Made by a program: the position numbers and the translations under genes. A stretch of DNA of 64,000 nucleotides, taken from a virus. Lineage: Duplodnaviria > Caudoviricetes. The DNA lies in IMG/VR virus record IMGVR_UViG_3300028392_002123; one strand, written 5' to 3'. The notes under the pieces are model-generated. The model worked only from the letters and a program-made list of their open reading frames with translations, did not search any database and was not told where the DNA came from. Within the stretch, counting starts at the first letter, position 1; every line of letters begins with the position of its first letter. Of the stretch, positions 26,632 through 53,250 are shown in pieces.

Positions 26632-27152
26632 CAAGCTCTATTTAGCTTCAAGGTAGACGTTAACATCCATAGATGTTTGTCATGAGCATCTTGACGATCT
26701 GCCATTAAGTTAGCAAGGCCATGATTGCCCACTGCTTCAGCAAGTTCGTAACATCTGACCAAGCTGTCTAATACAACACTAGAATCATCTACTAACATCT
26801 GTATCATAGCACTGGCTGTTGGTATTTCAACTTGATCTTCTATTTCTGCTAGTTGACCGAATCTAGTAAAACTAGCTGGAGCATAAGCACCTAATGTGCG
26901 AACACGTTCTGCAATCGTATCTACACTACCATATACTTCTTCATAGATAGTGCTAAACAAAGCATGGTATTGTGGAAAGTTTGGACCTTCTACATTCCAG
27001 TGAAAGTTCTGTGCTTTAAGAGAAAATGCATATTCATTTGCTAAAACTATTTTGAGTGCTTGTACTAATTCATCCATACTAGATTCCTTTGAAATATTTA
27101 CATTATTTAAAGTATTATCTGTGTCATCGGCTTCAACAAAAGTATTATCCAT
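26631..27152 (-). CDS. dps: Dps/ferritin-like DNA starvation protein
   Basis: KAQNFHWNVEGPNF..YHALF, DTIAERVRTLG, DKHLWML. Confidence 0.93.
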   Translation of the reverse strand: MDNTFVEADDTDNTLNNVNISKESSMDELVQALKIVLANEYAFSLKAQNFHWNVEGPNFPQYHALFSTIYEEVYGSVDTIAERVRTLGAYAPASFTRFGQLAEIEDQVEIPTASAMIQMLVDDSSVVLDSLVRCYELAEAVGNHGLANLMADRQDAHDKHLWMLTSTLKLNRA

Positions 27153-28608
27153 TGCTTAACTCACGCTCAACTTGTTTAACCCAAGCACTGACATCGCTGG
27201 TACCTATTTCTTCTACATCACCTACAAAGTCGGCAACACCGTCAATGGCCTGCATAATTCTTTCAGGTCCGTATTTTAATAGTAAATCATGATGGCCGCT
27301 TAAGATACGACGAGTAATAGCACTGACCACTGGATTAACAGCGTCGTTGCTTTCTGGTACTATTTCTTCTTTCTTCAATGCCTGTCTGCCATATTTCAAT
27401 GATGGTAGAACCGAAGGATGCAATTTCTGTTGAATTATAGAAGCAACAAAAGAATTTTTCTTTTCTTTGTTTTCTTTATTGCCTTCCGCCACACCTTGTT
27501 CACTGTGTCTAATATCAGGATTATCAATTTGTTCTGCCACGCTGTTTAAGTGATCATTGGCCACAGTAATATAACTATACATCCAACCGTCTAGACTAGT
27601 ACCTTGTTCTAAAACTTGTTTGATCTTCATTATATTTTCAAGAATAGCATTTACTTCACCATGTGCCATGCCATCAATTTCTTGATCTTCTGTTACACCT
27701 TGCTGTTTGCGACGAGCAAGTTCGCGAGCAACTGCTTTTAACTGTTGAGCAAACACAGGACTTTGACCTTGTTCGTCTTTGTGACTATTCCATAATCTTT
27801 GTAATTTTTCTGTGGGAACCTTTGACAAGTCCGCATTTTCATAGACACTTTCGTTGTGACTCTTTTTATTTTTATTGTCCAAATAACCACGCTTGTTTAG
27901 TGTAGCCCAAGCAATGTTTTCTGCATCTTTACTGCTGTGGCCTGCTTGTTTTTCGCTTTTTGCAATGTGTCCGGCCATACGGTCTACTTTAGCACCTTCG
28001 CTGACAGGAGCGCCAGTTAATGACACAGTCCATGTTTTACCAGAACTAGCAGATTTTTTCTCTGCCCATTTTTTCATGTTGTTTAAATAATTACGTTCTT
28101 CCGCACTATCGGCATAACCTTTGCCTATGATAACTTTCCAAGGTCTGCCGTTGATACTAATTTGAATATTATTTTGTTCGTGACCTAGTTCGTGCTGTAG
28201 TTCTTGACGTTTGAAATCTTGTTTTTGTTGTGCGCCTAATTTAGGTGCGTTAGGATCTGCAAAACCATGATTGTAATCTGCTTCATCTAATTCTTCACTG
28301 TTACTGCTGGTAATCTTTTTAGCTTTGGGATCAACACCTTTGATCATATTTTCTTCTTCATCAGTGTAAGCATAAGCAAATGGTTTGTCGCTGATTTCAT
28401 CATCACTGCCATTGGTTTGTTGTTCACCATCGTGGCCAGCAACATCTTTACCAAACTTATAAAAACCATAGAACTGGTCTCCACTGAGTTCGTGCATGCC
28501 TTTGATCGCGGCCTTATGATCCTTGTGCATGCCTTCGCTCATTGCATGACCTAATCCAGTTTCATTTAGCCATGCATTGTGCTTGTTGGATAGATCATTG
28601 ATTTTCAT
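27145..28608 (-). CDS. Multi-module putative internal-head polyprotein
   Basis: Start MKINDL (ATGA-coupled); short modules separated by LNE, MSE, LDE, VSE, GVTE, GVAEG, VPE. Confidence 0.7.
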   Translation of the reverse strand: MKINDLSNKHNAWLNETGLGHAMSEGMHKDHKAAIKGMHELSGDQFYGFYKFGKDVAGHDGEQQTNGSDDEISDKPFAYAYTDEEENMIKGVDPKAKKITSSNSEELDEADYNHGFADPNAPKLGAQQKQDFKRQELQHELGHEQNNIQISINGRPWKVIIGKGYADSAEERNYLNNMKKWAEKKSASSGKTWTVSLTGAPVSEGAKVDRMAGHIAKSEKQAGHSSKDAENIAWATLNKRGYLDNKNKKSHNESVYENADLSKVPTEKLQRLWNSHKDEQGQSPVFAQQLKAVARELARRKQQGVTEDQEIDGMAHGEVNAILENIMKIKQVLEQGTSLDGWMYSYITVANDHLNSVAEQIDNPDIRHSEQGVAEGNKENKEKKNSFVASIIQQKLHPSVLPSLKYGRQALKKEEIVPESNDAVNPVVSAITRRILSGHHDLLLKYGPERIMQAIDGVADFVGDVEEIGTSDVSAWVKQVERELSNG

Positions 28609-29690
28609 TTTTTGGCTCCAGTGTTGATACCACCTTGCCATTTCTTTTCACGATCCCATTTAACTCCCATGGCACGTTCTCTACGATTAGTACCTGCCTT
28701 GTCTAAACGATCGTCATCATGGTCTTTTTCGCTGCCGCCGTAGTTATCTGGATTAGCATGATGCTTTAAACCTGTGGCAGTTGGCTCGATGCGACCTTCT
28801 GCAATACCGCGTAGGCTGTCAATCCATTCACGAACTTTCTTGGGACGACCACGACCACGTTTTGGTGCATTGGCATCTGGTAGTGCATGTTTACGTGGAC
28901 GACCACGGCCGCGTTTGGTTGCATTAGCATCTGGTTCTGGACGAGTGCGTGGACGACCACGGCCGCGTTTTTCTGTAGCGTCGCTGGCAGGCGCTACACG
29001 TTTTTTCTTTCCAGGCTTTTCGTTGCCCCATTCATCATAGTTGTCTTCGTCATCATTGACTTTGTCACTTCGATAACCGTATTTCTTACCAACGTTGCGT
29101 TCGCTTTCTGGATCTTTGGCATTTTTCTTCATTGCGCCTTGCATACCTTTAAGCAAGTTCATGTCAAGACCTTCGTGCAAACTATCAAAAATTCCATTTA
29201 ATGCATTCAGGGAAGTTGCTTCTGCAGGACGATCCATGTCCATGCCTATTTGCATACCACCGCCTAGATGTGCATCTAATTGTTGTGTTACCCATTCGTA
29301 GGGATCACCTGTACGTGCCTTGGAAATGCCATATGGCATTTCACCATGCAACATGTAATAGTCAAACAATGCTTCATACAAGTCATCGGCTAATTCATCA
29401 CCCATTTTAAAGTCTTTGACTTCTTTGGGGAAACGACTTAAAATGTGTTCCAGTGTTTCTGTAGTTTCGTTGAGTTGGCCTAGTCCCTGTACAAATGCAT
29501 CATGTGTGCCTTGGTCTAAACTGGATTCATATAAACCGTAAACTTCTTTAACTTCCTTGGATTCTAATACTAATAGTTCTGTTCCTGCAAGAATAGTAGC
29601 GCCGGTGTTATAACGATGTGCTTCTACGATTTTTTTAATGTTGACACGCCCTTGGTGTGCATCATTGTCGAACATTTCAAATAGTTTCAT
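28605..29690 (-). CDS. Multi-module protein with three AT-hooks
   Basis: KRGRGRPR x2 and KRGRGRPK; leader MKLFEMFD. Confidence 0.8.
   Translation of the reverse strand: MKLFEMFDNDAHQGRVNIKKIVEAHRYNTGATILAGTELLVLESKEVKEVYGLYESSLDQGTHDAFVQGLGQLNETTETLEHILSRFPKEVKDFKMGDELADDLYEALFDYYMLHGEMPYGISKARTGDPYEWVTQQLDAHLGGGMQIGMDMDRPAEATSLNALNGIFDSLHEGLDMNLLKGMQGAMKKNAKDPESERNVGKKYGYRSDKVNDDEDNYDEWGNEKPGKKKRVAPASDATEKRGRGRPRTRPEPDANATKRGRGRPRKHALPDANAPKRGRGRPKKVREWIDSLRGIAEGRIEPTATGLKHHANPDNYGGSEKDHDDDRLDKAGTNRRERAMGVKWDREKKWQGGINTGAKK
28843..28970 (-). repeat. Three AT-hook-coding direct repeats
   Basis: cgtggacgaccacggccgcgttt at 28894-28916 and 28948-28970; variant at 28843-28862. Confidence 0.85.
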
Positions 29691-29701
29691 AATATTAACC
29701 T

Positions 29702-29887
29702 TTATTTGTTTTCAAGAACATTCTTTACCATACGAGGTTTACTAATGTCTGTGGATTCTTTTTTGGCCCTTTTGCGGGGCATATTGCGTTTCATAGGTAC
29801 AGAAAATATGTTTCCAGCTGGCGCGGCAGCAACAGCACCGCTGGCAGTAATACCCATGTCCTCGGCAATAATTTCTTTTATTTTCAT
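29702..29887 (-). CDS. Small basic protein with CTS-like leader
   Basis: MKIKEIIAE-D; ATAAATA at 29893-29899 upstream. Confidence 0.7.
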   Translation of the reverse strand: MKIKEIIAEDMGITASGAVAAAPAGNIFSVPMKRNMPRKRAKKESTDISKPRMVKNVLENK

Positions 29888-29922
29888 AGTATTATTTATC
29901 CAATATTAATCAATATTGAAAA

Positions 29923-31236
29923 TTATTCAATGCTGGCCAACTCAGCTAGAACAGGACCTTTTTCAATGTAATTCCTGCGAACTTTGCCGTTGTTTTCTGT
30001 TTTGTGTCTAACAGTGAGGAAAATCTTACCTGAGTTCTTGTCAATGATATCTACTCTTGGATTCTTAGTAGATTCATTGTAGACGCTGTCTAAGTTTATT
30101 TGTTTAAGTTTCTTGGCCAGTTGACTGAATTTAAGAACTTTATAATGACCGCTTTCAAAGCTTACTAGTTCTATGCTGGGGTCATTTAACGTGGCAAAAT
30201 AATCAATGCCATTGATAAATTTACGAACATACATATATTCTTCGTCGTCATAGTCACCACTGAGTAACTGCTTGAGCAACATATCTGCTTGTCTGTAAAT
30301 AAATTCTATGGCAGCATCTGCGCCCTGATCCTGATATATTTCATTGTATTCAGCTTCATAGGAATCTATCAAGATACCAAACTTTGCCCACAGTTCTTTC
30401 ATTTTACTAAATTCACTGCCACCCACTTGTCCCATTTGATCGCTGCCTGCTTTTAAGCTGATGTTTAGTTTACGTTTGTCAACACGACCGGTTTTAGGAT
30501 CTGTTACATAAACTTCAACGTCTGTTTTACGAGTCTTTTCTCCACTGACTCCATCGCTGACCACATTAATAATGTCGGGTTTACCGTTCATAAAGAAATA
30601 CTCGCTGTACTCCTGTGCTCTAGTACTGTTGGCATAGGCCAGCGCACTGGCCAGCAAATCATTTAATAACGGACGTTTTTTTGGATCCATGATGTCTCTA
30701 TATGGAGCCGCTTTTAATCTTAGAGTGAACTGTATTTTATCATTTACCACAGTACGACCTTTGTCTTTTACTTCTATGCTGTAGTTGTCTTCGCCGGTGT
30801 TTTTTAATTGATCTATTACTGCCCATACTTCAGGACCACCAACGTTGCCAATACCACTGCTGACTCTAGCACTTAATTTGGCAAACATTGCCGCACCTAG
30901 AATACCTTCTGCAATTTCACCTCTGTTGGCCACTTTATCTGCGGTAAGTCCAGTGCCGCCAAATTCTGCTGTTTTAGCAAAGCTTGACAGTGGTTTAAGT
31001 CCCTTGTTAGTCTGCACACTGATGGCACCGCGTAGTGTACCTTCATCGGCTAGCTGTTGTAGTCTCTCTGCTTCTTCGGGTTTGATCTTTACTTTACTGC
31101 CATCAACTAATTCAAACGTGCCGTTGTCTGTGATTTTAGCGATAAGAATGCCTAACTTTTCATAGTTACGTTTGGCCAACTCCGCTGGCGACAAATTAGA
31201 AGCTTCTAACAGTGATTTTATTTCAAGTAATCTCAT
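29923..31236 (-). CDS. Putative PD-(D/E)xK restriction-endonuclease-fold protein with CTS-like leader
   Basis: NRGEIAEG helix, KTDVEV...NISLK; leader MRLLEIKSLLE. Confidence 0.55.
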   Translation of the reverse strand: MRLLEIKSLLEASNLSPAELAKRNYEKLGILIAKITDNGTFELVDGSKVKIKPEEAERLQQLADEGTLRGAISVQTNKGLKPLSSFAKTAEFGGTGLTADKVANRGEIAEGILGAAMFAKLSARVSSGIGNVGGPEVWAVIDQLKNTGEDNYSIEVKDKGRTVVNDKIQFTLRLKAAPYRDIMDPKKRPLLNDLLASALAYANSTRAQEYSEYFFMNGKPDIINVVSDGVSGEKTRKTDVEVYVTDPKTGRVDKRKLNISLKAGSDQMGQVGGSEFSKMKELWAKFGILIDSYEAEYNEIYQDQGADAAIEFIYRQADMLLKQLLSGDYDDEEYMYVRKFINGIDYFATLNDPSIELVSFESGHYKVLKFSQLAKKLKQINLDSVYNESTKNPRVDIIDKNSGKIFLTVRHKTENNGKVRRNYIEKGPVLAELASIE

Positions 31237-31991
31237 AAATCGTAATAATATTCCCTAGGACGATGATCAACCATAACTAAGTTTTTATATTTATCGATAC
31301 TTCTGTCCATTAGGTCAATGTATTTATTAACATTTAAGTTAGTATCAAGTGTCAAAATCCATAGTATTTTTTTATATTTTGGATCGTACTCACTGCCATG
31401 ATAAGTTCTAACGTTATTCCAAGCAAATGAATTTGTATCATTTAAATCAGGAAAATGCATGGTTTTCCAGGGTGCTTCATCTTCTCGTATCCACAATGTT
31501 TCTCTGGGATTTTCGTCATAGAGTTTAATACGCATGGCCATTGGACAATCTACTAAACTGTCATCATCCCTGTGGTTTAAAATTTTATCAGTGCTGGACC
31601 ACATACGCCATAGGCCTGGTGTTGTCAAAGGAAAATATTCCATTAGTTGATCTTTTAATTCAGGGAATGTACCAAACACATCAACAACATGATTAGTCCA
31701 TACTTCGTCAACTTCTTGTGCGTTAATCGTTTTAAAATGACTGTTATAAACTCCATCTGGATTGGCTATGTTTGCTCTCTTTTTTGTCGCTACAGCACTA
31801 TTATTAAAATACCAATCAACAAACTTTTCATGATCGTCGGCCTTGATGCAAGGAATATCAAAGGGAACATAAAAATACTTTCCGTATGATTTTTCTAATC
31901 CTTCTGCGACCAATGAACCAATAGTTTTTCTAATAGGATCAGCCGATCTTCCCGCTATTACTCTTTCGCGCTGACCTTCATACATAGGCAT
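31233..31991 (-). CDS. Hypothetical protein, possible cupin/oxygenase fold
   Basis: NHRD (HxD) and later FAWNNVRTYHGS. Confidence 0.5.
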   Translation of the reverse strand: MPMYEGQRERVIAGRSADPIRKTIGSLVAEGLEKSYGKYFYVPFDIPCIKADDHEKFVDWYFNNSAVATKKRANIANPDGVYNSHFKTINAQEVDEVWTNHVVDVFGTFPELKDQLMEYFPLTTPGLWRMWSSTDKILNHRDDDSLVDCPMAMRIKLYDENPRETLWIREDEAPWKTMHFPDLNDTNSFAWNNVRTYHGSEYDPKYKKILWILTLDTNLNVNKYIDLMDRSIDKYKNLVMVDHRPREYYYDL

Positions 31992-31994
31992 AAC

Positions 31995-34460
31995 TTAATC
32001 TCTATGTAAGTCTGGACGGTTGGCACTCAACCAAGCTTTGGCATTAGCTAAATCATCAAATACTTTGCGTGTGACTCCACTGCTGTCAATGACATGATAG
32101 CGAACTTCTGTGCTGTCGTCTATGCGCTTACGTGTAACACGTTTAATGCCAGGTTCACCTTCCCTAACTGAACGCATACCTTCATCCACGGCATCGACTG
32201 CTTGCCCTAGAGCACTGACACTTTCTTTTTTAGCTGTTTTAGGAAACTGTGTTCTCAGTACCTGTTTTAAAATTGCCTGTGCTTGGGGATTGTTGGCCGG
32301 CAACATTTCTCTATCTAAAGCATAATATGCCCATGTAGTATAGCTGTTACTTTCCACAGTATTAACACCTGCACTTATATCCACTGATATTAATCTTGCT
32401 ATAGATTTTATTTGTGGAACCAAGGTCACAGTATAAAATTTGTCAACGGCTGTATCCTGTGCTTTTTTCTTTCTATCTTCATTTCTAAATTTAGCAACTA
32501 ATTTTGTTTTTGCCAAGTTGCTGTTTGTTTCAATATTGCTTACTGTGTACTGTTTGCCAAACTGTTGTTTTACTATATCTTCAACTGTCTTGCTACGTGA
32601 TACATTCCATATGTAGAATTTAAGCACAGGCAACCCTTTTGTTCTAATAAAATTGGCCGCTGTGCTAGCTGTTGTATCGGATGTAATTTCTGGTTTGTCA
32701 CCGGCCAGTTTGACCAATTTGGTTTTATATTCATTGGCGTATAAATTAGGATCGCTGGCAATGATCATAGCACGAATAAAACGACCAGCAGTATTATATA
32801 TGCCCGAAAAATCTGCTAGGTAATTGCCGCCGGCATGTCTGAAACTAATGTATTTGCCATTGTAACTGATACTGGCAGTATGTTGACGACTATAAGAAGC
32901 CACAATACCCTGTAACATTTTTTCATCAACTGTGTTGGTCTGTCTGGGTTTGTCAAATACAGTGGATTGTTTTTTACCTACCTTAGTTTGTATTGCGTTG
33001 TCGTCACTGGTGGCCACTGCCGTGGATAAGTTTTTAGTCACGCTGTCCGCATATCTATTATTCTCACGACCAAAGTAACGTAGTACATACTGATCGCCTA
33101 GGAATACTGCCAACTTCAATACATCTAACTTTTGTGGTATACTGACGTTGATGTGCAGGCCTGTTGAATTATTAGTGTATAATTTAAGCTCTTGTGCTAT
33201 AGTATAAAACTTTTTAAGAGCGTCGATGGCAGTGGCCGCAGGCAATGGTGGGCTGACAATCTCAGCACTACTTTCTGTTTCTTCATCATTGGGAGATAAA
33301 CTTCCATCTGGTTCCACGTACCAATCAGTTAGGTTTTTATCTTCTTCGTGATAGTCATTGAATATGTTTACTTTTGCGCCCATGGCTGCTTGTACTGCTG
33401 TGGCTATTACCTTGGATGCTTTGCTGTAATTTTCATCTTCATCGTAGCTGTCCCAGTAATCGTCATCTTCTTCATCATAGTCATCCAATCTTAATAATTC
33501 CCATGCAGACTCGGGGTCAGTGTAAGTGAATAAATTATTAAAGTTTCTTTCTACTTGTGCTGGTGTTAATCCCAGTGCAAATCTAAAAAGTTGTGGCCAG
33601 CCAATGCGGCTTACCATTCTTAGTTCATTTCCAAGCATTTCTAATCTGCTGCCGCCTCTAGAATTAAAATACATTAAACGGCCTAGTCGATTAGCAAATG
33701 TTAGCTGTGTTTCAATACTTTTATTTGTGGGCATCGGGCCATGTTCTTGTTTATATTTTTTTAGGAATTTTTTTCTGTCTTCTTCGGGAATTTTATAATA
33801 TACTTCAAGCACAGAATCTAGAATACCTGAATTCATATATGCCTTAAATGCTTCCTGCATATTTTTATAACCCTTTGAAGTATCTTTTAATTTAAATACT
33901 GCATCAAAACTCACCGGCTGTAGATTATCAAAGTCTAGATTATCACTGCTGAACGGGCTGTGTTCATCCAAAGCGTCTGCAATTTTCTTAGGAGTCATTC
34001 CAGTATCTTCAGCGTCCTTTTCACTGCCACCCATGTTAACTGTTTCTGCAGGAATACATACTTCAAATTCAAAACCTACTAGCACACCCTTGTCCTGGCC
34101 TGTGCTGATAGCCTTGGCAAATTCTCCAGGATTCATAGGAGCTTCGTCTAGTTCTTCTTCTTTGGTCAATGACTTTAATTTGTTCTGCTTTAACCAACGC
34201 TCGTAGTCTGCTACACTTCTGAATTCTTTCTTCTTAACATTTTGCTTGTCATGTTGATCGAACCAAGATCTCATTTTACTAGTATCTGTTGGATCTTTGG
34301 CATTTTCATCGCCGGCAAAAAAGTCGCGCATGGTTGCCAAGCTGGCTTCTTCAACTGCTTGTCTTAGTGCAGATCTATGGTCATTGTTATTTTCTACAAC
34401 AGGTACCTGAACAGTATCTTCTTTTATTTCTTGCTTGTTTATAAAATTATTAAATCTCAT
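31995..34460 (-). CDS. Amidoligase (COOH-NH2 ligase type 2) polyprotein, paralog A
   Basis: GFEFEV; VEPDGSL; EIVSPPL; TNNSTGLHINVS; ISFRHAGG. Confidence 0.82.
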   Translation of the reverse strand: MRFNNFINKQEIKEDTVQVPVVENNNDHRSALRQAVEEASLATMRDFFAGDENAKDPTDTSKMRSWFDQHDKQNVKKKEFRSVADYERWLKQNKLKSLTKEEELDEAPMNPGEFAKAISTGQDKGVLVGFEFEVCIPAETVNMGGSEKDAEDTGMTPKKIADALDEHSPFSSDNLDFDNLQPVSFDAVFKLKDTSKGYKNMQEAFKAYMNSGILDSVLEVYYKIPEEDRKKFLKKYKQEHGPMPTNKSIETQLTFANRLGRLMYFNSRGGSRLEMLGNELRMVSRIGWPQLFRFALGLTPAQVERNFNNLFTYTDPESAWELLRLDDYDEEDDDYWDSYDEDENYSKASKVIATAVQAAMGAKVNIFNDYHEEDKNLTDWYVEPDGSLSPNDEETESSAEIVSPPLPAATAIDALKKFYTIAQELKLYTNNSTGLHINVSIPQKLDVLKLAVFLGDQYVLRYFGRENNRYADSVTKNLSTAVATSDDNAIQTKVGKKQSTVFDKPRQTNTVDEKMLQGIVASYSRQHTASISYNGKYISFRHAGGNYLADFSGIYNTAGRFIRAMIIASDPNLYANEYKTKLVKLAGDKPEITSDTTASTAANFIRTKGLPVLKFYIWNVSRSKTVEDIVKQQFGKQYTVSNIETNSNLAKTKLVAKFRNEDRKKKAQDTAVDKFYTVTLVPQIKSIARLISVDISAGVNTVESNSYTTWAYYALDREMLPANNPQAQAILKQVLRTQFPKTAKKESVSALGQAVDAVDEGMRSVREGEPGIKRVTRKRIDDSTEVRYHVIDSSGVTRKVFDDLANAKAWLSANRPDLHRD

Positions 34461-34470
34461 TGTTATTCCA

Positions 34471-41233: not shown

Positions 41234-41250
41234 GGGTTTAATTGGAAATA

Positions 41251-41793: not shown

Positions 41794-41911
41794 ATCAGTA
41801 TATATACTGAACAGTCAAATTTATTATTAGTAGCGATTAATGTCTTCGACAATAAAAATTAAAGTATTTAGAAACTCTAATTTTAATTCTTCTAATCTAG
41901 TCTTAGCAACA

Positions 41912-43120: not shown

Positions 43121-43139
43121 AGTAGATCCAAAATAAATG

Positions 43140-43241
43140 CTCACTAAGAACGCCATTCCAGGGCACGACTCCTATAACGTTCTGCCCAGCAGCCGGGCAA
43201 CCCTTTAGTAACGCTAACGTCCTAAGGTAGGGTGTTACTAG
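43140..43241 (-). ncRNA. Candidate structured non-coding RNA
   Basis: GC-enriched intergenic stretch with several complementary pairs, starting right after an ATAAATA box. Confidence 0.45.
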
Positions 43242-43248
43242 TATTTAT
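43242..43248 (-). promoter_or_regulatory. Late-type promoter core ATAAATA
   Basis: Overlaps the stop of 43245..43907, immediately 5' of the candidate RNA. Confidence 0.5.
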
Positions 43249-43907: not shown

Positions 43908-43908
43908 T

Positions 43909-44889: not shown

Positions 44890-45179
44890 TTTGTGTCCTT
44901 GACTGTGTCTAAATATTCAGCACGACTAATTGTAGTGCCATCTTCTAATATTACTTCACGACCCCACTGGAACATATTCCATATACGATCATGAATATAA
45001 TACATTAATGCGTTAATTGTAAATTGACAGATAAAAATAATGCTGGCAGTTTCAGCGGCGCTGGCACCGGCTCGTGCTACAAAATAAACAATGGCGGCTG
45101 TTGTGCTACCGCCAATAATTCTCCAGCTTATTAATCTTACTATGCTACGACTGCGCCAATCATTGAATTTCTTTTTCAT
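44886..45179 (-). CDS. DUF2061-like membrane protein
   Basis: RSIVRLISWRII...YYIHDRIW. Confidence 0.75.
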   Translation of the reverse strand: MKKKFNDWRSRSIVRLISWRIIGGSTTAAIVYFVARAGASAAETASIIFICQFTINALMYYIHDRIWNMFQWGREVILEDGTTISRAEYLDTVKDTK

Positions 45180-45180
45180 T

Positions 45181-45732
45181 TTATTTCCTAAAAATTAAAT
45201 CTTCTATTTCATCTGGAATCCAGGGCTTGCTCATGCGTTCTGGATGCCATACTATGCCTGCTATATTTCCGTCTATCCAAGATTCGCAGTAGCCTTCAGA
45301 ATCTACTGCCAGTACTGTGGCATTTTTATGCGGTTCAGTTATTTGTAAATTATGATAACTGTTCACTAGGTATGCATCTCCAAAATGATAAACAGTATGA
45401 CTGGTTTCCATGTGTGTTGCACATTCGTCGATTTTACCGCCTAATATATCTGTTAACATGAAACAGCCATGGCAAATGCCTAATATTGGTTTTTGCCAAG
45501 TCATCATTTCTGTGGCTATTTTTAATTCTACGCTTCTGCGTAGAGTACTGTCGTCGCCGCCGGTGATTATCAACACATCCAAGGGATCTGCTAATAATTC
45601 AAAATCCTGATCTACTATATTTGGGATAAAAGTAAGCGTATGATCTTTTAAGTATGAATACCATCCATGCTCAATCGAATCATACGCTCTGCCTTTGTGA
45701 TATAGGATCCTCTGTGTGAGTCCAATATTCAA
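45181..45732 (-). CDS. Class I glutamine amidotransferase / peptidase C26 (gamma-glutamyl hydrolase-like)
   Basis: ITGGDD, PILGICHG, VNSYH, VWHPE. Confidence 0.88.
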   Translation of the reverse strand: MNIGLTQRILYHKGRAYDSIEHGWYSYLKDHTLTFIPNIVDQDFELLADPLDVLIITGGDDSTLRRSVELKIATEMMTWQKPILGICHGCFMLTDILGGKIDECATHMETSHTVYHFGDAYLVNSYHNLQITEPHKNATVLAVDSEGYCESWIDGNIAGIVWHPERMSKPWIPDEIEDLIFRK

Positions 45733-45733
45733 T

Positions 45734-46429
45734 TTACCAACCGTAGGCGTCTGCTACCAATTTTGCACCGTCTGTGTTGGCCACGGTGTTACGGCAAGAA
45801 ATTTCATATAAATCTTTACGCATTTGAGCAACAAGAGTTTCAACGCGGCCAGCATTTTCTTCTGTGATCAATTGCTCTAATTTACGTGCGCCAATTTTGC
45901 TGTGGAAACCTTCGTCCTTGGCAATTTTGCGATAGGCACCGGAGATGAATTCATCTTCAATTGAGTCTGCCATTTGATCCCAAACAGCTTCAGCGCGACC
46001 TTCAGCAACTAACTGATAAGCGGCCAGTGCAACTGGATCTGATTCTGCTTCATACTTGGCCAATAAACTAGCACCTTTGGCTGTGTTAGCTTTAGCTTCT
46101 GCTTCAATGGCGGCCTTAACATCAACTGGCTTACCTTGGATGTGCTCAATGACTTCCTTGACTAAACGGAAGTGTACAGCTTCATCATGAGCTTGCTGAG
46201 TTAATAACTGTAGTTCAACAGGGTCTGCATCTGCACCAAGTTCTGCAACTTGACGGCTGATTTCAACCATGTTCATACGCTCATTGACCATGCGTCCGAT
46301 AAAGTGATCAACTAGCTCTTCTTGGCTAGGCTTGCTGTCAAAGTATTCTTTAACGTTTAATTGGCTAGCTTTGAATAGAGCTTGGTTGTCTTCTACTATC
46401 TTAGCTACGAACTGTTTTGCTGTCAACAT
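45734..46429 (-). CDS. Ferritin-like diiron protein
   Basis: Paired ExxH motifs DEAVH and DEGFH plus NE and AEG carboxylates. Confidence 0.78.
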   Translation of the reverse strand: MLTAKQFVAKIVEDNQALFKASQLNVKEYFDSKPSQEELVDHFIGRMVNERMNMVEISRQVAELGADADPVELQLLTQQAHDEAVHFRLVKEVIEHIQGKPVDVKAAIEAEAKANTAKGASLLAKYEAESDPVALAAYQLVAEGRAEAVWDQMADSIEDEFISGAYRKIAKDEGFHSKIGARKLEQLITEENAGRVETLVAQMRKDLYEISCRNTVANTDGAKLVADAYGW

Positions 46430-46519
46430 CGCTGACTCCTTAATTAAGATATGCTGTCATATATAATAGTATATATCTGTGCAATCATATTTATTTATCA
46501 GATCTGTGAAAAAAATCCT

Positions 46520-47272
46520 ATGAATACAAAAATTTTTAACTTAATTAAAGAAAATTTACAAATCGCCTTTAATTTACCTAAATATCAGAAAATTTCTGAT
46601 GCCATCGACGAAAATACAGTAGTGGACCAACTGCCTTGGACACCGGCTCGCTATCGCAAATTCAAGGATACCATAGAAGCAGAACTTAGTTTGCCCTGCG
46701 ACTACGTGGGTACCTTGGGCAGTATTGTTGATGATCTCAGTGAACGTTATATCAGTAGATTCTTTGCTGAGATATGGCAACCACGCACTGGAGACTATGA
46801 TTACACAGGATGGGAGTTAGTAGATGAAATTAATAGACAAAATCCTGGCAGCGTTTTGGACGTTGGCTGCGGGTATCACCCATTTAAGGGTAGGATTAGC
46901 AATTTGGTGGGCATCGATCCTTACAATTCCTGTGCTGACTACATGGTGGATATTCTTGACTATAAAGTTAAACCTGCTAGTCACGACATAATTATTGCTT
47001 TGGGCAGTATTAATTTTAACAGTAAAGAAGACATTGAAGCAAGATTTAGTTGCTGTGTGGATTTATTAAAGCCCTTGGGTAAAATATATTTCCGTGCCAA
47101 TCCAGGAATTCCACATAAGACAGGTCCCTATGTGGATATATTTCCCTGGAGTTTTGAAATAGTCAATGAATTTGCTGAAAAATATAATTTAACATTACTT
47201 GAATTTAAAAAAGATAAAAATGATAGATTATATTTTGTTTATCAAAAAATAGAAAAAGAATTAATTTTTTAA
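46520..47272 (+). CDS. Class I SAM-dependent methyltransferase with extra N-terminal helical domain
   Basis: VLDVGCG, GIDP, DIIIALGSINF, LKPLG. Confidence 0.82.
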   Translation: MNTKIFNLIKENLQIAFNLPKYQKISDAIDENTVVDQLPWTPARYRKFKDTIEAELSLPCDYVGTLGSIVDDLSERYISRFFAEIWQPRTGDYDYTGWELVDEINRQNPGSVLDVGCGYHPFKGRISNLVGIDPYNSCADYMVDILDYKVKPASHDIIIALGSINFNSKEDIEARFSCCVDLLKPLGKIYFRANPGIPHKTGPYVDIFPWSFEIVNEFAEKYNLTLLEFKKDKNDRLYFVYQKIEKELIF

Positions 47273-47836
47273 TTTACTAATTCTTTTTTTAATAATTTTA
47301 ATCACAGAATCAGCTTGTAACACTTCATAATGATTGTAGTCTATTTCTACTAATTCCATGTCCACGTGATGTCGCTGACTGGCTATGGTAACAACACCAT
47401 CGTTGGCTTCTGCGATAAAAGGACTTTGCCCTTTAACTGTTACAACATTACACCAAGGGTGCTGAATCTTAATTCTGTCGGCCTGCTTCATAGCCCACGA
47501 ACTAGGGCCTATATCACGCATAAGTCTACTAAAAGGTAAGAAGAATTTGGCAACTTCCGCAACTTCGGCGCCTCCGTAGGGTGTGCTTAGTGTAACAGCC
47601 CCTAGAACTTGATCTGGCATGGCATTGGCCAAGTGTAGCGAATATATGCCGCCTAGACTGTGTGCCACAAATACCATGTCCCGAACATCTTTTAGTTGTT
47701 CCAGCATGTCCTTTAAGTTATTTTCAAAGCCGTTGCGACTATCGTAGTTAATGTCTATGCCCGCACCCAGTTTGCTTCTAATATAGTTAAAGCTTTCGCT
47801 GGTCGCGCTGGCGCCGTGAATATATACTAATTGCAT
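47261..47836 (-). CDS. Alpha/beta hydrolase
   Basis: YIHG, nucleophile elbow AHSLGG, LSTPYGG, NDGVV, NH. Confidence 0.88.
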   Translation of the reverse strand: MQLVYIHGASATSESFNYIRSKLGAGIDINYDSRNGFENNLKDMLEQLKDVRDMVFVAHSLGGIYSLHLANAMPDQVLGAVTLSTPYGGAEVAEVAKFFLPFSRLMRDIGPSSWAMKQADRIKIQHPWCNVVTVKGQSPFIAEANDGVVTIASQRHHVDMELVEIDYNHYEVLQADSVIKIIKKRISKLKN

Positions 47837-47962
47837 TTAATACCGTCCTGACGCAAGTACAATCTTGCAGATATGTTCCAATCTTTCTATGTGTTCATAG
47901 GCACGCCATGGACTTGTATCAATGGCAACTACACCATGTCCTTTGATGCCCACAATGTCATA
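47837..47962 (-). pseudogene. 3' fragment of class II aldolase/adducin gene
   Basis: YDIVGIKGHGVVAIDTSPWRAYEHIERLEHICKIVLASGRY*; stop abuts the next ATG; no own start or N-terminal domain. Confidence 0.7.
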
Positions 47963-48035
47963 GGAAAAAGTCGCGAAGGCCGACACCTTTAAATTCTATT
48001 TCAGAACCCTTGACGTGTGAAAATTTTGTAGTCAT
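47958..48035 (-). pseudogene. 5' fragment (25 aa) of a truncated gene, possibly a cupin
   Basis: AAGGAG RBS then MTTKFSHVKGSEIEFKGVGLRDFFL*. Confidence 0.55.
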
Positions 48036-48051
48036 TGACAAAACTCCTTGA

Positions 48052-48882
48052 TTAATCGTTACTGGCACCGGCGCCGCACTTAGCACGTTTGGCATTGGTT
48101 AATGCGCCAAAATCTACTGGCCATTCTTGACCTGGTTGTAGTTCTCGAGCGTTGGCAGGGAAAGCATACTTAACACCGGCAGTCTGCATAATCTGTGCCA
48201 CAGGCATGCGGAATTTAGTTAAATCATTGCCCAAGTTAGGATATGGAGCTGTGTGTGGGAATGCCCAACCTGCAATTTCATTGGTTTGATTATTGATAAC
48301 AATTTTGTAGAATCCGTGCGGTACAACTACGCCATTGCCAATCTTTTTATCAGTAGCATCATAGACACCGCCTACATAAACTGTGTAGCTTTGATTGCGT
48401 TGTACTGCCCATCCACGTACACTTGTTTCCAATAGTTTCCAAATGCCACGATTTAGGCTACCAGCCTGCGGGCTCATATTAGTCATTAAAAAGCTTTCAA
48501 ACTCTACTTGAACGTCCCATGACAAATCGCCATCTGGACTCATGTGCCCTTTATCATAGCCAGTACCTGCGTAATCGTCGGGACGGGCTCCTCCTGGAAC
48601 TGATTGATCAGCAACAAAAGCATTAGTGCGAGCGACACAGCCGAGAGCGTTTTGAGGTAGTAGTTCATAGGTTACATATTTAGGTAATTTGGCAGCGGCA
48701 TCGTAGCCTACCAAGTATGCTTGACGACAAATAGGCTGTACGCCTGCTGTCTGTGGAAAACCGTAGGGTGCATGTACCTTGCAGGTCTGTGGATCCTGTG
48801 GCGGCCTTTGTGTCCACGCAACAGCATTGCCAAATCCCACCGTTACTAGTAGGATTAAAATTAGTTGTTTCATTGATTTCAT
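48052..48882 (-). CDS. Secreted DNA/RNA non-specific endonuclease (NucA/EndG family)
   Basis: Signal peptide; GYDKGHMSP, NMSPQ..LNRGIWKLLE, VPHGFYKIV. Confidence 0.92.
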   Translation of the reverse strand: MKSMKQLILILLVTVGFGNAVAWTQRPPQDPQTCKVHAPYGFPQTAGVQPICRQAYLVGYDAAAKLPKYVTYELLPQNALGCVARTNAFVADQSVPGGARPDDYAGTGYDKGHMSPDGDLSWDVQVEFESFLMTNMSPQAGSLNRGIWKLLETSVRGWAVQRNQSYTVYVGGVYDATDKKIGNGVVVPHGFYKIVINNQTNEIAGWAFPHTAPYPNLGNDLTKFRMPVAQIMQTAGVKYAFPANARELQPGQEWPVDFGALTNAKRAKCGAGASND

Positions 48883-48887
48883 TTTGT

Positions 48888-49523
48888 TTACTTCCATATG
48901 ACCATTTTAAACCTTTCCTTAGGTATGCCAAAATAATCGCATTTCCAATCGGACTGTGCGAAGAATTCCAAGCTGTGCCATTTATCTTTATATTTAATCA
49001 GATTCTTCGCGGCATCCTGCCAATCTATGTTTAATAACACAGGTTCTATTTTATTTTTAATGGCTGTAATTTCTTCATAGCTGAAACTGTCCCATTCCCA
49101 GTGTAGTATTTCAAATGCATTACCCGCGCGATCCACATAGTCCATGCTGAAATCTAGACCCCATTTAGAACGTATATTAATTATTTTATGAATTAAAGGC
49201 AGTGATTCTGCCCAATACTTTAATTCAGCCAAGGCTGGCCCTGTGTAACCCTTGCGTTCAAATAATAAACTGTGATTTAATACAGCGCCTTCTATTACGT
49301 TGTACTGTGTAAACCAGTCTTGTTTAACAGCACGAATATGATCCCTGTGTAATCTAGGCTTGACATAATTACTGTAAGCATAGTGCTGTTCTAGCACAGT
49401 TAAATCGTAGCCATTTTGATCAAATAGATCTAAGTCTTCTTTAGTGGGAATGTACACTAATTTTTTAATTGGTTTATCCCAGAAAGCCTGGGGATTAAAT
49501 TCATTATTTGTTACGGATAACAT
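48888..49523 (-). CDS. Hypothetical phage protein
   Basis: 211 aa ORF. Confidence 0.7.
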   Translation of the reverse strand: MLSVTNNEFNPQAFWDKPIKKLVYIPTKEDLDLFDQNGYDLTVLEQHYAYSNYVKPRLHRDHIRAVKQDWFTQYNVIEGAVLNHSLLFERKGYTGPALAELKYWAESLPLIHKIINIRSKWGLDFSMDYVDRAGNAFEILHWEWDSFSYEEITAIKNKIEPVLLNIDWQDAAKNLIKYKDKWHSLEFFAQSDWKCDYFGIPKERFKMVIWK

Positions 49524-49529
49524 TTAATT

Positions 49530-50873
49530 TTATTTATTTTTACCGCGGCGCATGTTCATTTGCCAACGTGCCAGCTGTCCTTTACGACCCGATGCATGAC
49601 TGGCCTTTTCCAGTTCGGCCATGGTGGCATGTTTGGGTATGCCATGACGAACGCTGTCTCCGGGGCGACCCGGGCCTTTGCCATCCGCAAAGTTTTCCTC
49701 TACACCCGGTTTTTTAACAGGACTCCAGTGGAACACAGTCATGCCCATACTGGGATATTCTTCCGGTTGCCACTTTGCACCCAGTATGTTCTGTATCACA
49801 GGAACAAAATACCGACGATATAAGCTGGCACGGTTATCACCTTTGGCAGTAAATGATACGCCAGGTGGACGAGCTTTGGCCATGTATTCAGGCAACTGTC
49901 GTTTAACAATATCAAGAACTGTGCTCAATATTTTCACTGTTGATCGGCTGGCACTTGTGGCCTGGCTTGGTGTGTCGTAATTGCCATTCACAGCAAATGT
50001 GATGTGCAAGGTGTCATTGAATTCACTGCGATCAAAGAACACATCTACCCAGTGGCCATCCACAGTGGCATGAAACAGACTGCGCTTTCGCTTGCGATTG
50101 GGCTTGTATTCAGCAGGTGCATTGCCCAGCTCAGTGATGGGCTCAACAGCAATCCAAGCCATGATATCGGTCTTGTTCAACAACTCGGCCGCGGCCCATG
50201 CTCTATGATTACCGTCTAAGATATAATTATTAGAATCTAAGACAATAGGATGTTTATCTATATAATGTAAACTGTGTTCTCCGGCATGTTCTGGATCAAT
50301 ATACATAACACGATTATAAGGATCATCGGTTTCACTGCCTTGTTCTTCATCATTGTATTCTTGATCGGGTATATGTATATCGGCCAGTGGCACACGTTTT
50401 AATTCATATTCTGGATATTTCATTATCAAGTTTTTTAAAAACCCACCACCCTGTTGGTCCTTGGGATGTATTTTACTTACATAACTCCATACTTGTTCAG
50501 CTGAAGCAATCTTAGTAGATATAGATGTTTCCCACACGCGAACATCTTCGCCTTTGTGCTTGTTCCAGAATCCTGCGCCTGCATCAGTTTGATCCCAGCT
50601 ACGCTGTATTTTGTAACCTTGGCTTTTAACAAAGTCATACATTATTTTAGCAATTCCTTGATTACGGAATTTTTCTTTGACAAATAAATCTTGGGGATCT
50701 AATTCCCGACCGTCGCCGATGTTAAATGTAACATGCCCTAGTTCGTTGCCCCAAGTTGAATCAAGTGCATTTACAAACAGTTGGCCATTGTCCTTGACCA
50801 TTCTGAATTGCAGGCCTTCAAAATCTTGTAGTTTACCCTGCTCACGTTCAACTATAAATTCATGTGCTCTCAT
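49530..50873 (-). CDS. Polyprotein: GNAT + ParB/Srx-like + unknown repeated module + basic C-terminal module
   Basis: Leader MRAHEFIVE; FRNQGIA; PIVL..ILDGNHRAWA; junctions VWE, ITE, GVEE. Confidence 0.8.
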   Translation of the reverse strand: MRAHEFIVEREQGKLQDFEGLQFRMVKDNGQLFVNALDSTWGNELGHVTFNIGDGRELDPQDLFVKEKFRNQGIAKIMYDFVKSQGYKIQRSWDQTDAGAGFWNKHKGEDVRVWETSISTKIASAEQVWSYVSKIHPKDQQGGGFLKNLIMKYPEYELKRVPLADIHIPDQEYNDEEQGSETDDPYNRVMYIDPEHAGEHSLHYIDKHPIVLDSNNYILDGNHRAWAAAELLNKTDIMAWIAVEPITELGNAPAEYKPNRKRKRSLFHATVDGHWVDVFFDRSEFNDTLHITFAVNGNYDTPSQATSASRSTVKILSTVLDIVKRQLPEYMAKARPPGVSFTAKGDNRASLYRRYFVPVIQNILGAKWQPEEYPSMGMTVFHWSPVKKPGVEENFADGKGPGRPGDSVRHGIPKHATMAELEKASHASGRKGQLARWQMNMRRGKNK

Positions 50874-52798
50874 CTGCTGGCCACCTTAATAGGTTCTCCT
50901 GGCTTGACATGCATGGCGGCCTGCCAATCTCGTGCTTTTTGTTCACGATTTTTTTGTCCTTTTAAGCCAGGATTAATATTCTTTGTAACTTGTTTTGTAT
51001 TGTTAAAACTCTTAGTTCTAGGTCTAACAAACTGTATCCAATACCATATACTGCTCAGCGCGGCCGCTGTGGGTGTGGCCACTATTTCAGGTTTGGCAAC
51101 AAAATCCACAGGATGATTAATAAATTTAGAAATCCACTCTCCGGCTTTTTGATAATTATATTTTCCAGTTAACTGCAAATATCCTCGGCCATGATATTTT
51201 GCGCCATCGCCGGGTTTGTCGTTGCCCAATATTTTGGCCTTGGCTGGATTAAATCTTATATCATATTTCTTTGCAAATTGTTCAGGAGTGCCATATTCAT
51301 TCATGGTGTTAAAGTTATCACTTTCATGAGCACACTGAGCCATAAATGCCGCTAACTCTGCGGGATTTTTAATAAATTGTTTGGCCCATTTTAATAAAAA
51401 ATCTACCTTGGGATTATTAGCCACGGACTGTGGTTTAGTATCTGTTTTTGCCTGTGCGCCCAAGGCGCTTACTGTGGCGCCTCCGGCCATGCCTTTAAGG
51501 AATCCTCTGCGATCAATGTCTTCCCCTACATCTTGTTTTATTCTTACTAGGTCAAATCCAATATGGTCACCGGTATCATGTACATTTTTTAATTGATATC
51601 CCCAGGATGTAGCATAACGTTGAAGTAACTTTGAATATAAACTAATTCTACTGTCTTTTCCTTGTTCTTCGCCTTTGGCGCCGGTAAATGATATAAATCT
51701 CGGCTGTTCTTTTGTCGTTAGAAATTCTTGTATGGCACTTAATACTGTGGCAAAGATTCTCTGTGAATCACCGTCGCCAGTTGCATCTTGACTATTGTTT
51801 CTCCAAAATTCAACGGTGTACACATCATCATCTTCTTTATTGAACATGATACTTAAATTAGAACCGTCTGGTAATTTAGTATACGCATCGTGGTCACCAA
51901 ACTCCCCGTGTTCCCATTGAAGCGGATAGGGCTGATTAAAGGCTTCCTCCAGACTTTCAGGAGTCCAGGCCATGTTTTTACTGCCCTTGACTGTGGGTTT
52001 GAATCCCTGTCCCTTATAGAATTTTGTCAGTTTGGCCTGGCTTACCTGTCCTTTGTCCCAGGGATATAGTGTAAGACTTATATTATCTTCTCGGGCCAGC
52101 CGCTGTAGTTCCGCCATGGCGCGAGTACCCACTCCTTGACGCAGAGGATATGCTTGAAACCATTTGACTTCCACAGCATCTTTTTTGCTCATGCTGGGCA
52201 CTAGATCAAACATGGCAAACTGTTGTTGTTCACCTTCGCCCCATACCATAATATGATTATTTTGAAATGTATGCGGATACAAGTCATAGACCTTTTTAAT
52301 CCAGTCTTTGGCACGTTGAGGTACTGTTAGTTTTATAGTGTCTTCGGCTACATCATGATTCAGCGAATTTGCCAACTGAGATATAGGAACTCCCGCGGCC
52401 TTGTAACCACGTGCTATACGAGCAATATAAGTTTTACGAGGTCTAGTGCCTTCTAAGTGTTCTCTAGTCGCCGGAGTCATAGTGTACAATTCTGCTACAA
52501 CTTTATTGCCGTCAACGTATACTGGCACAGTTTTTCTATCATATAAATGAGGATAACCTTCTGTACGATCTAGTTCGGCCAACATATTTCTGTCCAAGGC
52601 CCATAGTACTCCTACAACTTCTTGACCTGCTTCGGGACGCACATTAGCATATTGAAACATTTCATATTCAAAGTTTTTAAGCACAGCGGTGCCTACAAAA
52701 TCAGCACCACGCATTATCTTAGGATCTGTTAGCATGCCATATGCAAAATAGTATATGGGTACTGCACCTGCTTCTATTAGAAAATCACTGGCTTTCAT
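50870..52798 (-). CDS. Polyprotein: GGCT + GNAT + unknown module + Tat signal + GH19 lysozyme
   Basis: Leader MKASDFLIE; YFAYG...LDRTEG (GGCT); RQGVG (GNAT); RRGFLK; FMAQCAHES, YHGRGYLQLTGKYNY (GH19). Confidence 0.88.
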   Translation of the reverse strand: MKASDFLIEAGAVPIYYFAYGMLTDPKIMRGADFVGTAVLKNFEYEMFQYANVRPEAGQEVVGVLWALDRNMLAELDRTEGYPHLYDRKTVPVYVDGNKVVAELYTMTPATREHLEGTRPRKTYIARIARGYKAAGVPISQLANSLNHDVAEDTIKLTVPQRAKDWIKKVYDLYPHTFQNNHIMVWGEGEQQQFAMFDLVPSMSKKDAVEVKWFQAYPLRQGVGTRAMAELQRLAREDNISLTLYPWDKGQVSQAKLTKFYKGQGFKPTVKGSKNMAWTPESLEEAFNQPYPLQWEHGEFGDHDAYTKLPDGSNLSIMFNKEDDDVYTVEFWRNNSQDATGDGDSQRIFATVLSAIQEFLTTKEQPRFISFTGAKGEEQGKDSRISLYSKLLQRYATSWGYQLKNVHDTGDHIGFDLVRIKQDVGEDIDRRGFLKGMAGGATVSALGAQAKTDTKPQSVANNPKVDFLLKWAKQFIKNPAELAAFMAQCAHESDNFNTMNEYGTPEQFAKKYDIRFNPAKAKILGNDKPGDGAKYHGRGYLQLTGKYNYQKAGEWISKFINHPVDFVAKPEIVATPTAAALSSIWYWIQFVRPRTKSFNNTKQVTKNINPGLKGQKNREQKARDWQAAMHVKPGEPIKVASR

Positions 52799-53250
52799 TT
52801 TCCATAGCCCCAATGCTTTTTGCCATTTTTACGGTGCTTTTTAGATTTCTTAATTATTTGATCTGGTTCACCAAAGTCTACTTTAATCACACGACCAGTC
52901 TTGGGATTCTTTGTATAGACTTTAATTTTTTCTTTTTTCTCAATGACAGTTTCTTCACCCATGTGTTTAAAATACTGTACTTCTCGTTCACGCTTTTCAG
53001 CACCAGCATGAGTAGGATACTTACCCAAATTTTTACCAGTTTTTTTGCTTTTTAATTCCCAGCCACCTTTGACTTTGACAATATGTTCTAGCAGAGTCAT
53101 GTCATTTCCCGGAGATTCGACTATGTATGTTGCTATATGAGTTGTTTTATTGATGCCAACAATAACTGTTTCGACAATAGTGCCGTTTATGTTAAATTCT
53201 AAAATATCGCCAATTTCTGGCTGGCCAGTATCAACTTCGTTTAATCGCAT
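52795..53250 (-). CDS. Small multi-module protein with CTS-like leader
   Basis: MRLNE; modules after LLE and VIE (KNLGKYPTH..., KVYTKNPKTG). Confidence 0.65.
   Translation of the reverse strand: MRLNEVDTGQPEIGDILEFNINGTIVETVIVGINKTTHIATYIVESPGNDMTLLEHIVKVKGGWELKSKKTGKNLGKYPTHAGAEKREREVQYFKHMGEETVIEKKEKIKVYTKNPKTGRVIKVDFGEPDQIIKKSKKHRKNGKKHWGYGK

Follow-up and report, generated by a model that had tools for sequence, protein, structure and literature searches.

We analysed a 64,000-nt stretch of DNA (hereafter the window) from IMGVR_UViG_3300028392_002123, a virus of the Caudoviricetes from a lake metagenome (3300010157; source contig JGI Ga0114964_10000001, 340,358 bp, which encodes one window protein with no letter changed), focusing on a group of genes, here called A to L, most of whose products begin with a short leader resembling the capsid targeting sequence (CTS) of phage T4. 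Nearly all genes of the window, these included, lie on the minus strand. The T4-type DNA polymerase (23357-26014) is 45-47% identical to the polymerases of the jumbo phages Phosso and Atu_ph07, which indicates that the phage is T4-related, and 44% identical to those of Rak2-like phages. There is no close cultured relative at the DNA level, a megablast of 36573-41233 against cultured phages giving no match; tblastn of protein C against cultured phages gave none either. A first-pass annotation, made from the sequence alone, had described a single block of about eleven genes with CTS-like leaders (27145-53250), encoding effectors that are packaged in the head and injected. All eleven N-termini that it quoted are present and belong to true minus-strand gene starts; the block, however, is split by 8 kb of leaderless genes into two sub-blocks, 49530-53250 and 27145-41233.

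The full leader can be written as M[KR]xx[DENQ][FILVM][FILVM]x[ED] and its six-residue core as M[KR]xx[DENQ][FILVM]. Five proteins carry the full pattern, namely B (50870-52798, 642 aa, MKASDFLIE), C (49530-50873, 447 aa, MRAHEFIVE), D (39959-41233, 424 aa, MKINQIITE), F (34471-36576, 701 aa, MKLLDVINE) and J (29702-29887, 61 aa, MKIKEIIAE↓D, where the arrow marks a putative cut), with the respective endings LIE, IVE, ITE, INE and IAE, i.e. hydrophobic-x-Glu at the sequence level. Another six match the core only and have partial leaders: A (52795-53250, 151 aa, which starts MRLNEV and has the leader MRLNEVDTGQPE), E (36573-39959, 1128 aa, MRLLELKD), G (31995-34460, 821 aa, MRFNNFINKQEIKE), I (29923-31236, 437 aa, MRLLEIKSLLE↓A), K (28605-29690, 361 aa, MKLFEMFD) and L (27145-28608, 487 aa, MKINDL...LNE↓T). 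The remaining protein, H (31233-31991, 252 aa), is without a CTS-type start. Leaders are 8-16 residues long. The starts are confirmed for B, C, E, F, I and L, whose start codons overlap the upstream stop as ATGA or TAATG (for L, the stop of K), and independent JGI gene calls give identical lengths for B, C, D, E, F and G.

The leaders are strongly enriched at the starts of these genes. The core is found at 11 starts in the block and at 2 of the roughly 66 other window genes, while among 386 internal methionines of window proteins it occurs 7 times and the full nine-residue pattern never. A degenerate DNA form of the full leader has four matches in the window vs. 0.01 expected from shuffles, every one at a start codon of the block (in B, 52772-52798), and a related contig (G001) has full leaders on 7 of its 426 open reading frames (ORFs) vs. 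about 0.2 predicted from the window background of 0.046% per position. Codons of the leader differ from gene to gene, with the amino acids conserved and the nucleotides not, and the leader is therefore an amino-acid pattern. The likeness to T4 that had been noted for these N-termini holds up as well. In T4, the internal proteins IPI, IPII and IPIII and the protein Alt reportedly carry a CTS and are processed by gp21, as Mullaney and Black are said to have described in 1996. T4 IPII and IPIII (NC_000866) begin with MKTYQEFIAE, and the consensus leader among the relatives of the window phage is MRA(S/N/H)EF(I/L)(T/I/V)E. When searched with a variable 6-9-nt gap, the leader pattern has three matches in T4, corresponding to ipII, ipIII and gene 61.1. 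The last of these (NC_000866 18966-19130, L100) encodes a 54-aa hypothetical protein with the CTS-like start MKTFKEFIKE.

What the first-pass annotation missed is that several of the leader-bearing proteins are polyproteins of shuffled modules with internal candidate sites. Motifs of the form (Q/E)-G-V-A-E-[GA] occur five times in E, with others in L, K, H and B. In a homologous set of 139 dereplicated ORFs from related IMG/VR contigs the commonest 4-mers are GVAE, VAEG and QGVA, 7-11x enriched over other ORFs of the same contigs, and the site logo reads K-Q-G-V-A-E-G. Related ORFs, as long as 2085 aa, contain pieces of E, L, B and C in quite different places, and the homology breakpoints concentrate on hydrophobic-x-Glu sites in two independent sets of relatives, the IMG/VR ORFs and 119 metagenomic proteins.

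E consists of an HxGH nucleotidyltransferase (residues 1-197) followed by at least seven modules. Its junctions, all on the minus strand, begin with PVSE↓S (39357-39371; residues 197-201), where 25 homology breakpoints lie at residues 195-206. EGVAE↓G (39093-39110; 284-289) marks the point where 17 independent high-scoring segment pairs (HSPs) begin, at 280-286, and the same 17 finish at 481-487, at QGVAE↓G (38514-38531; 477-482). Nine HSPs begin at 556-560, by KNVAE↓G (38274-38291; 557-562); about 25 begin at 654-664 and nine end at 664-666, flanking QGVAE↓A (37965-37982; 660-665); and about 25 end at 926-939, around EGVAE↓A (37161-37178; 928-933). The last junction, SMAE↓S (36978-36992; 990-994), has 26 breakpoints at 979-1002 and precedes a Cys-containing (A/S)V(K/R)QRLDPKCWKG module that follows directly after the leader Glu in about ten related ORFs, e.g. 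MRITEILTE↓AVKQRLDPK. Among the alignments of E within the 119 metagenomic proteins, 17 span 284-482, nine span 559-665 and about 25 span 659-932, so that each recurrent range extends from one GVAE site to the next; these ranges and 932-989 are found at other positions in other proteins.

An AlphaFold2 (AF2) model of E was restricted to residues 556-940 and built on collinear fragments, because MAFFT misplaced the shuffled modules in whole-E alignments (A2, 7111 columns; A3, low identities). It has two folded parts and a predicted local distance difference test score (pLDDT) below 50 at 556-567, 637-640, 643-682 and 926-940. Three sites, NVAE↓G, QGVAE↓A (inside the 637-640/643-682 segments) and EGVAE↓A, thus fall within low-confidence segments between folded domains. 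The module shared most widely is that of residues 666-932 (37161-37964), which has about 25 independent homologues and an alpha/beta fold at pLDDT 72-92; Foldseek gave weak matches only, to a class III adenylyl cyclase (E = 9e-3) and glutamine synthetase. The first module of E has only sub-threshold NCBIfam similarity to NMN/NaMN adenylyltransferases, and its possible identity as an NMN adenylyltransferase (NMNAT) is a lead, not a finding. In relatives (P0285, P0288, P0317-P0360), E modules are joined to Zeta_toxin/AAA_33, HD/PF13328, Sigma70_r4, LysM, NT5C, GNAT and Amidoligase_2 domains, and the combination of a nucleotidyltransferase with AAA_33 resembles the architecture of NadR.

The leader is present at the start of 73 of 124 complete homologous ORFs. 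We traced modules that stand right after the leader Glu in one phage to places inside other proteins. There they are preceded by Glu in 22 of 25 unique contexts, with the Glu one residue further on in two more, and P3 in these internal contexts is mostly hydrophobic (IDE, LTE, VAE, VLE, VNE). A good example is the NFADGK tail module, which in different phages follows MRANEFIVE↓, QGVAE↓ or PGVEE↓, the last being the arrangement in C. On sequence grounds, the Glu that ends the leader and that of the linkers mark one type of boundary. In addition, the two features go together: site density is 2.3x higher in leader ORFs than in other ORFs (Fisher p = 0.002), and leaderless nucleotidyltransferase homologues are without any G[VIL][AST]E site.

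T4-type head machinery is present in the relatives. Three related contigs (G001, rated 100% complete at 367 kb, G002 and G003) encode a Peptidase_S77 (PF03420) of the T4 gp21 type at 80-100 bits, in a gene order that is that of T4: portal, acidic core protein, protease, scaffold, major capsid protein. Their scaffold, of 365 aa, contains 17-18 [VILM]-x-E-[GASDN] sites. In their capsid protein, LAE↓S or LKE↓N at residue 42-43 is placed as the end of a short propeptide would be. MKLFEMFD, the start of K, also begins an 80-aa ORF of G001 that lies beside the portal gene, at the position of gp67. Database homologues number more than 4,000 for the DUF6267 family of protein D (see below) and more than 8,000 for the G003 protease, none of the latter traceable to the contig of the window.

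Cultured jumbo phages provide a link to virion composition. Homologues of F are found in Atu_ph07 (gp196; tblastn 7e-17) and RsoM2USA (ORF26). The Atu_ph07 protein AUZ94978 has an Amidoligase_2 domain and is encoded two genes from the portal gene; we equate it with gp196 because its computed mass of 57.93 kDa and those of its neighbours (87.30 and 66.3 kDa) match gp196, gp197 and gp198. In the Atu_ph07 virion proteome, gp196 was identified by 14 unique peptides at 30% coverage (PMC6102473, Table S5). This presence in the virion is an experimental anchor from a relative, and good evidence without being conclusive. As to the leader itself, the pattern has no in-frame match in DLP_6 or HTVC008M and three in RsoM2USA (near 215.9, 329.5 and 331.6 kb), none of them among the few proteins identified in its virion gel.

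Protein D, which consists of the leader and a DUF6267 domain (Pfam, 1.5e-75), is informative about how the leader relates to the protein behind it. Its AF2 model has a pLDDT of 82.6, and residues 1-16, including the leader, lie outside the fold at values below 50. Across 63 DUF6267 homologues, between 0 and about 55 aa precede the conserved KNTHLEH core, and where an extension is present it starts leader-like, mostly M[KR]xx[EQD][ILF]. Among cultured T4-like phages, the proteins of HTVC008M and DLP_6 start with MYNDLLVE↓D and MMKFTQFLAE↓S, and that of S-CRM01 is without a leader. Because the extension varies in front of a fixed core, the leader is an add-on, as would fit a targeting propeptide. 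The structural neighbours of the model are adenylyltransferase domains of RNA/DNA ligases at Z ~7 (5cot 7.7, 1xdn 7.3, T4 Rnl2 6.9), and a K-W-D-G stretch that is near-invariant in DUF6267 matches ligase motif I, so that DUF6267, judged from the model, is probably an uncharacterised family of polynucleotide ligases of T4-like phages. A phmmer search of DUF6267 against PDB sequences and the protein atlas was uninformative, and we found no paper naming the family in a literature search. The D and E gene pair (DUF6267 plus cytidylyltransferase-like, 36573-41233) is near-adjacent in Stenotrophomonas phage DLP_6 (L078 1498-4203) and in contigs L019-L023; the DLP_6 pair, AAY80_066 and AAY80_068, has the leader-like starts MMKFTQFLAE and MKNIKDILE.

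The other members of the block are diverse. A has a Lys-rich tail and is translationally coupled to B; a terminator hairpin (53258-53289) ends immediately before its ATG, and its module 55-98 is found again at the C-terminus of leader-bearing ORFs in contigs L029, L033/L034 and L038. B is a polyprotein with the Pfam module order leader, GGACT/AIG2, GNAT-like, DUF6934-like, Tat-like stretch and GH19 lysozyme. Its candidate sites, on the minus strand as are all those that follow, are HDVAE↓D (52340-52357), SLEE↓A (51941-51955) and QDVGE↓D (51518-51535), and its homology breakpoints cluster at residues 145-148, 272-283 and 421-426. QDVGE↓D directly precedes the Tat-like RRGFLK...AQA (51449-51535; Pfam TAT_signal at 18.7 bits, below the cut-off), followed by GH19, and cleavage there would put the Tat-like stretch at a new N-terminus. 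With GGACT, GNAT-like and GH19 modules in one polypeptide, B, like E with its nucleotidyltransferase and further modules, combines disparate activities. C consists of a GNAT-like module, a module at 119-395 and a 57-aa basic tail that is preceded by PGVEE↓N (49692-49709), with 29 homology breakpoints at residues 387-395.

In the second sub-block, F and G each have an Amidoligase_2 domain (Pfam, 1.2e-10 and 1.5e-07, respectively). H is translationally coupled to I and has a candidate 30-aa propeptide ending at SLVAE↓G (31899-31916; residues 26-31). I belongs to phrog_3560 and has homologues in the T4-like cyanophage ACG-2014f and in Desulfovibrio phage 7757. J is small, basic and of internal-protein size, and K has three KRGRGRP(R/K) AT-hook repeats and a candidate site at RGIAE↓G (28797-28814). 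L is a string of small modules with sites at PVSE↓G (27994-28008), QGVTE↓D (27685-27702) and QGVAE↓G (27481-27498), its homology breakpoints lying at residues 196-206, 300-313 and 362-377. No peptidase or zincin-like domain was detected by Pfam in any block protein at E <= 0.01, and searches of PHROGs and Pfam gave no phiKZ-family matches for these proteins. The presence of AT-hook and small basic proteins (K and J) and a lysozyme fits the composition of known internal and ejection proteins (PMC5512222).

Several features surrounding these genes are also of interest. The leaderless insert between the sub-blocks (41251-49523) encodes a PNP_UDP_1 nucleosidase-like protein, a TctC-like binding protein with a signal peptide, DUF2061, a class-I GATase, an alpha/beta hydrolase and a signal-peptide-bearing Endonuclease_NS, and contains one plus-strand gene. 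Elsewhere, a ~20-nt element, CAATAATTGACCGAAATTC, stands ahead of each of two paralogous small genes (5844-6038 and 6069-6353; region 5844-6383). MKVKDLIEQ occurs inside the second of these genes and accounts for one of the two matches to the core leader that lie outside the block. The TAAATA boxes that the first-pass annotation had noted before the starts at 53250, 41233 and 29887 are present, the first of them within a terminator hairpin loop. TAAATA lies 11-43 nt upstream of 11 of 71 genes vs. about two expected, including replication-side and non-cargo genes, and the window has 40 copies on the coding (minus) strand and 17 on the other; it is a candidate promoter core of the phage.

Taken together, we consider it fairly probable that these genes encode the head cargo of a T4-superfamily jumbo phage, loaded by means of the leader, cut after Glu and released with the DNA. 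In the model that we propose, the leader, M-[KR]-x-x-[DE]-hydrophobic-hydrophobic-x-E, would be the functional counterpart of the T4 CTS and would dock the newly made protein on the scaffolding core during prohead assembly. After closure of the shell, the gp21-type Peptidase_S77 would cut after the Glu of hydrophobic-x-Glu to remove the leader, and the same protease would cut the (Q/E)-G-V-A-E↓G linkers of the polyproteins into separate modules. The products (nucleotidyltransferase, amidoligases, gamma-glutamyl cyclotransferase, GNATs, RNA-ligase-like DUF6267, GH19 lysozyme, and AT-hook and small basic proteins) would remain in the DNA-filled head and exit with the DNA at infection. For head targeting and cleavage after Glu, which the first-pass annotation had proposed from the leaders, there is strong comparative support, from the protease in relatives, the equivalence of leader and linker Glu, the breakpoints and the disordered linkers, together with one proteomic data point from a relative, gp196. 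Delivery into the host and effector roles, the remainder of that proposal, may follow by analogy with T4 and SPN3US, and we likewise infer scaffold binding, cleavage, copy number, ejection and enzyme action in the host.

A number of observations weigh against this reading. Packaging and cleavage in the window phage are predictions from genes and models, and the protease, scaffold and capsid genes are those read in the related contigs G001-G003. Six of the eleven leaders are partial or weak matches, those of E and K end in Asp and not Glu, and the window leader is one residue shorter than that of T4. Regarding gp196, its N-terminus, MRWQDISSKKLTE, resembles the leader only loosely, no in-frame match to the strict pattern occurs in Atu_ph07, and the Atu_ph07 virions were only purified with polyethylene glycol (PEG), a few replication proteins being detected too at low coverage (PMC6102473). 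Large folded enzymes would have to unfold to pass the tail. Finally, the T4 late promoter TATAAATA is not enriched, with 2 found vs. 6.45 expected; for this reason, and because TAAATA is not specific to the cargo genes, we dropped the promoter argument, and the promoter evidence is uninformative.

Of the other explanations, the closest is that the proteins are packaged and cut but are mainly structural. They would then fill the core or scaffold and act as counter-ions to the DNA (an 'inner body'), or be degraded and expelled, and the enzyme domains would have no role in the infected cell. The three AT-hooks of K, the small and basic nature of J and the tail modules, the identity of the K leader with that of the ORF at the gp67 position in G001, and the fact that T4 gp22, gp67 and gp68 are cut and mostly lost (PMC5694885) all fit such a role. 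We nevertheless regard it as unlikely, given that the enzymes look intact, with conserved catalytic motifs (HxGH in E, K-W-D-G in D, GH19, GGACT and Amidoligase_2), and that gp196 persists in mature Atu_ph07 virions. Moreover, hundreds of relatives retain and reshuffle these modules, which argues for selection on activities and not on bulk.

It could also be that head proteolysis plays no part: the polyproteins might be processed in the cytoplasm by another protease, or the linkers might be merely flexible and remain uncut, the leader being a relic of paralogous 5'-end recombination or a feature of translation initiation, and the enzymes acting in the producing infection, e.g. in neighbouring modification pathways. 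The location of the block among metabolic and modification genes, the weakness of some leaders and the existence of nucleotidyltransferase and DUF6267 homologues that work without one would fit this scenario. Conservation of the leader as amino acids and not as DNA speaks against it, however, as do its match to the experimentally defined CTS of T4, the interchangeability of its terminal Glu with that of internal junctions, the co-occurrence of leader and linker sites, the lack of any second protease or zincin-like domain in these proteins by Pfam, and the virion-borne homologue gp196; we think it quite improbable. Last, Lys is common at position 2 in phage genes, several leaderless window genes start with MK, and Lys/Arg at this position combined with AT-rich early codons might create the pattern by chance. 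The DNA-level excess, the complete lack of the full pattern at internal methionines, and the leader counts in G001 and among the homologous ORFs make such a coincidence so remote that we reject it.

Head cargo can be compared with known systems. The T4 CTS is established, as are the diverse internal proteins that follow a conserved CTS in T-even phages (PMC3012670, PMC5694885). As in T4, the leader is about ten residues long with a nearly identical consensus (MKTYQEFIAE vs. MRAHEFIVE and MKASDFLIE) and a hydrophobic-x-Glu end, it heads otherwise unrelated, fast-changing proteins, and the phage clade matches T4 in its S77 protease and in its portal/core/protease/scaffold/capsid layout. There are also clear differences. 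The T4 internal proteins are 8-20 kDa, and Alt, an ADP-ribosyltransferase, is the one enzyme of the T4 cargo, whereas here most proteins are large enzymes or polyproteins of up to 1128 aa, with relatives above 2000 aa; the (Q)GVAE↓G linkers between gene-shuffled modules are particular to the present system, as predicted from its genes. The T4 core proteins gp22, gp67 and gp68 likewise have many L/I-x-E sites that are cut by gp21, comparable to the 17-18 in the scaffold of the clade, and the K leader is that of the G001 ORF at the gp67 position; unlike the proteins described here, they are non-enzymatic and largely lost from the head once cut. We regard the system as a variant of the T4 internal-protein system.

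A second comparison is with phiKZ, 201phi2-1 and SPN3US, in which ejection and inner-body proteins are reportedly processed by prohead proteases, according to work by Thomas et al. from 2010 and 2012. Glu-specific processing of many head proteins is established for phiKZ-like phages (PMC5694885), which are also jumbo phages with many head-internal proteins, including a virion RNA polymerase (PMC5694885, PMC7411985, PMC10052503). Their proteases are related to gp21 and cleave after Glu at A-x-E or S/A/G-x-E; at the sequence level, V-A-E↓G has the Glu that such cleavage would require, but P3 is hydrophobic as in T4. In contrast to the short leaders of the present system, the propeptides of phiKZ and SPN3US are mostly longer than 100 aa with no common short leader, their proteins are not described as shuffled multi-enzyme polyproteins, and the phages belong to a different lineage. 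Polyvalent proteins (Iyer et al. 2017, PMC5512222) resemble the present ones in having disparate enzymatic domains in one polypeptide, mosaicism, a predicted delivery with the DNA, and lysozyme and GNAT modules. There, however, a built-in zincin-like metallopeptidase is the proposed processor (PMC5512222) and none is found in the block proteins; in the present system, cutting would fall to the capsid maturation protease, and a T4-type CTS would serve as the address. Neither amidoligase nor capsid targeting sequence is mentioned in the text of PMC5512222. Our literature search found no report joining a CTS with protease-delimited, shuffled enzyme polyproteins in T4-type jumbo phages, no paper linking a CTS to Rak2-like phages, cyanophages or polyproteins, and no description for T4-type phages of a capsid maturation protease processing multi-enzyme polyproteins.

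More broadly, we tentatively suggest, while doubting it slightly more than we believe it, that a combinatorial system for head cargo is widespread among T4-like jumbo phages of fresh water, with a grammar that can be read from the leader and the (Q)G-V-A-E↓G linker together, and that any module behind a leader or between linkers would be loaded, excised and injected. If so, the grammar would provide a simple rule to list the pre-made effectors of thousands of uncultured jumbo phages. The idea can be tested in culture with phages that have the same features, namely Stenotrophomonas phage DLP_6, Ralstonia phage RsoM2USA and Agrobacterium phage Atu_ph07. The leaders would also offer natural variants of the CTS, which is already in use for loading foreign proteins into T4 heads. 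Should the present reading be true, a capsid maturation protease processes multi-enzyme polyproteins, and the virion cargo would include an RNA-ligase-like protein, amidoligases, an NAD-type (NMNAT-like) nucleotidyltransferase and a gamma-glutamyl cyclotransferase. Injected proteins are the first move of a phage against host defences and are hard to spot from sequence; if the grammar is right, the enzymes described here would act on targets or defences of the host ahead of all phage gene expression.

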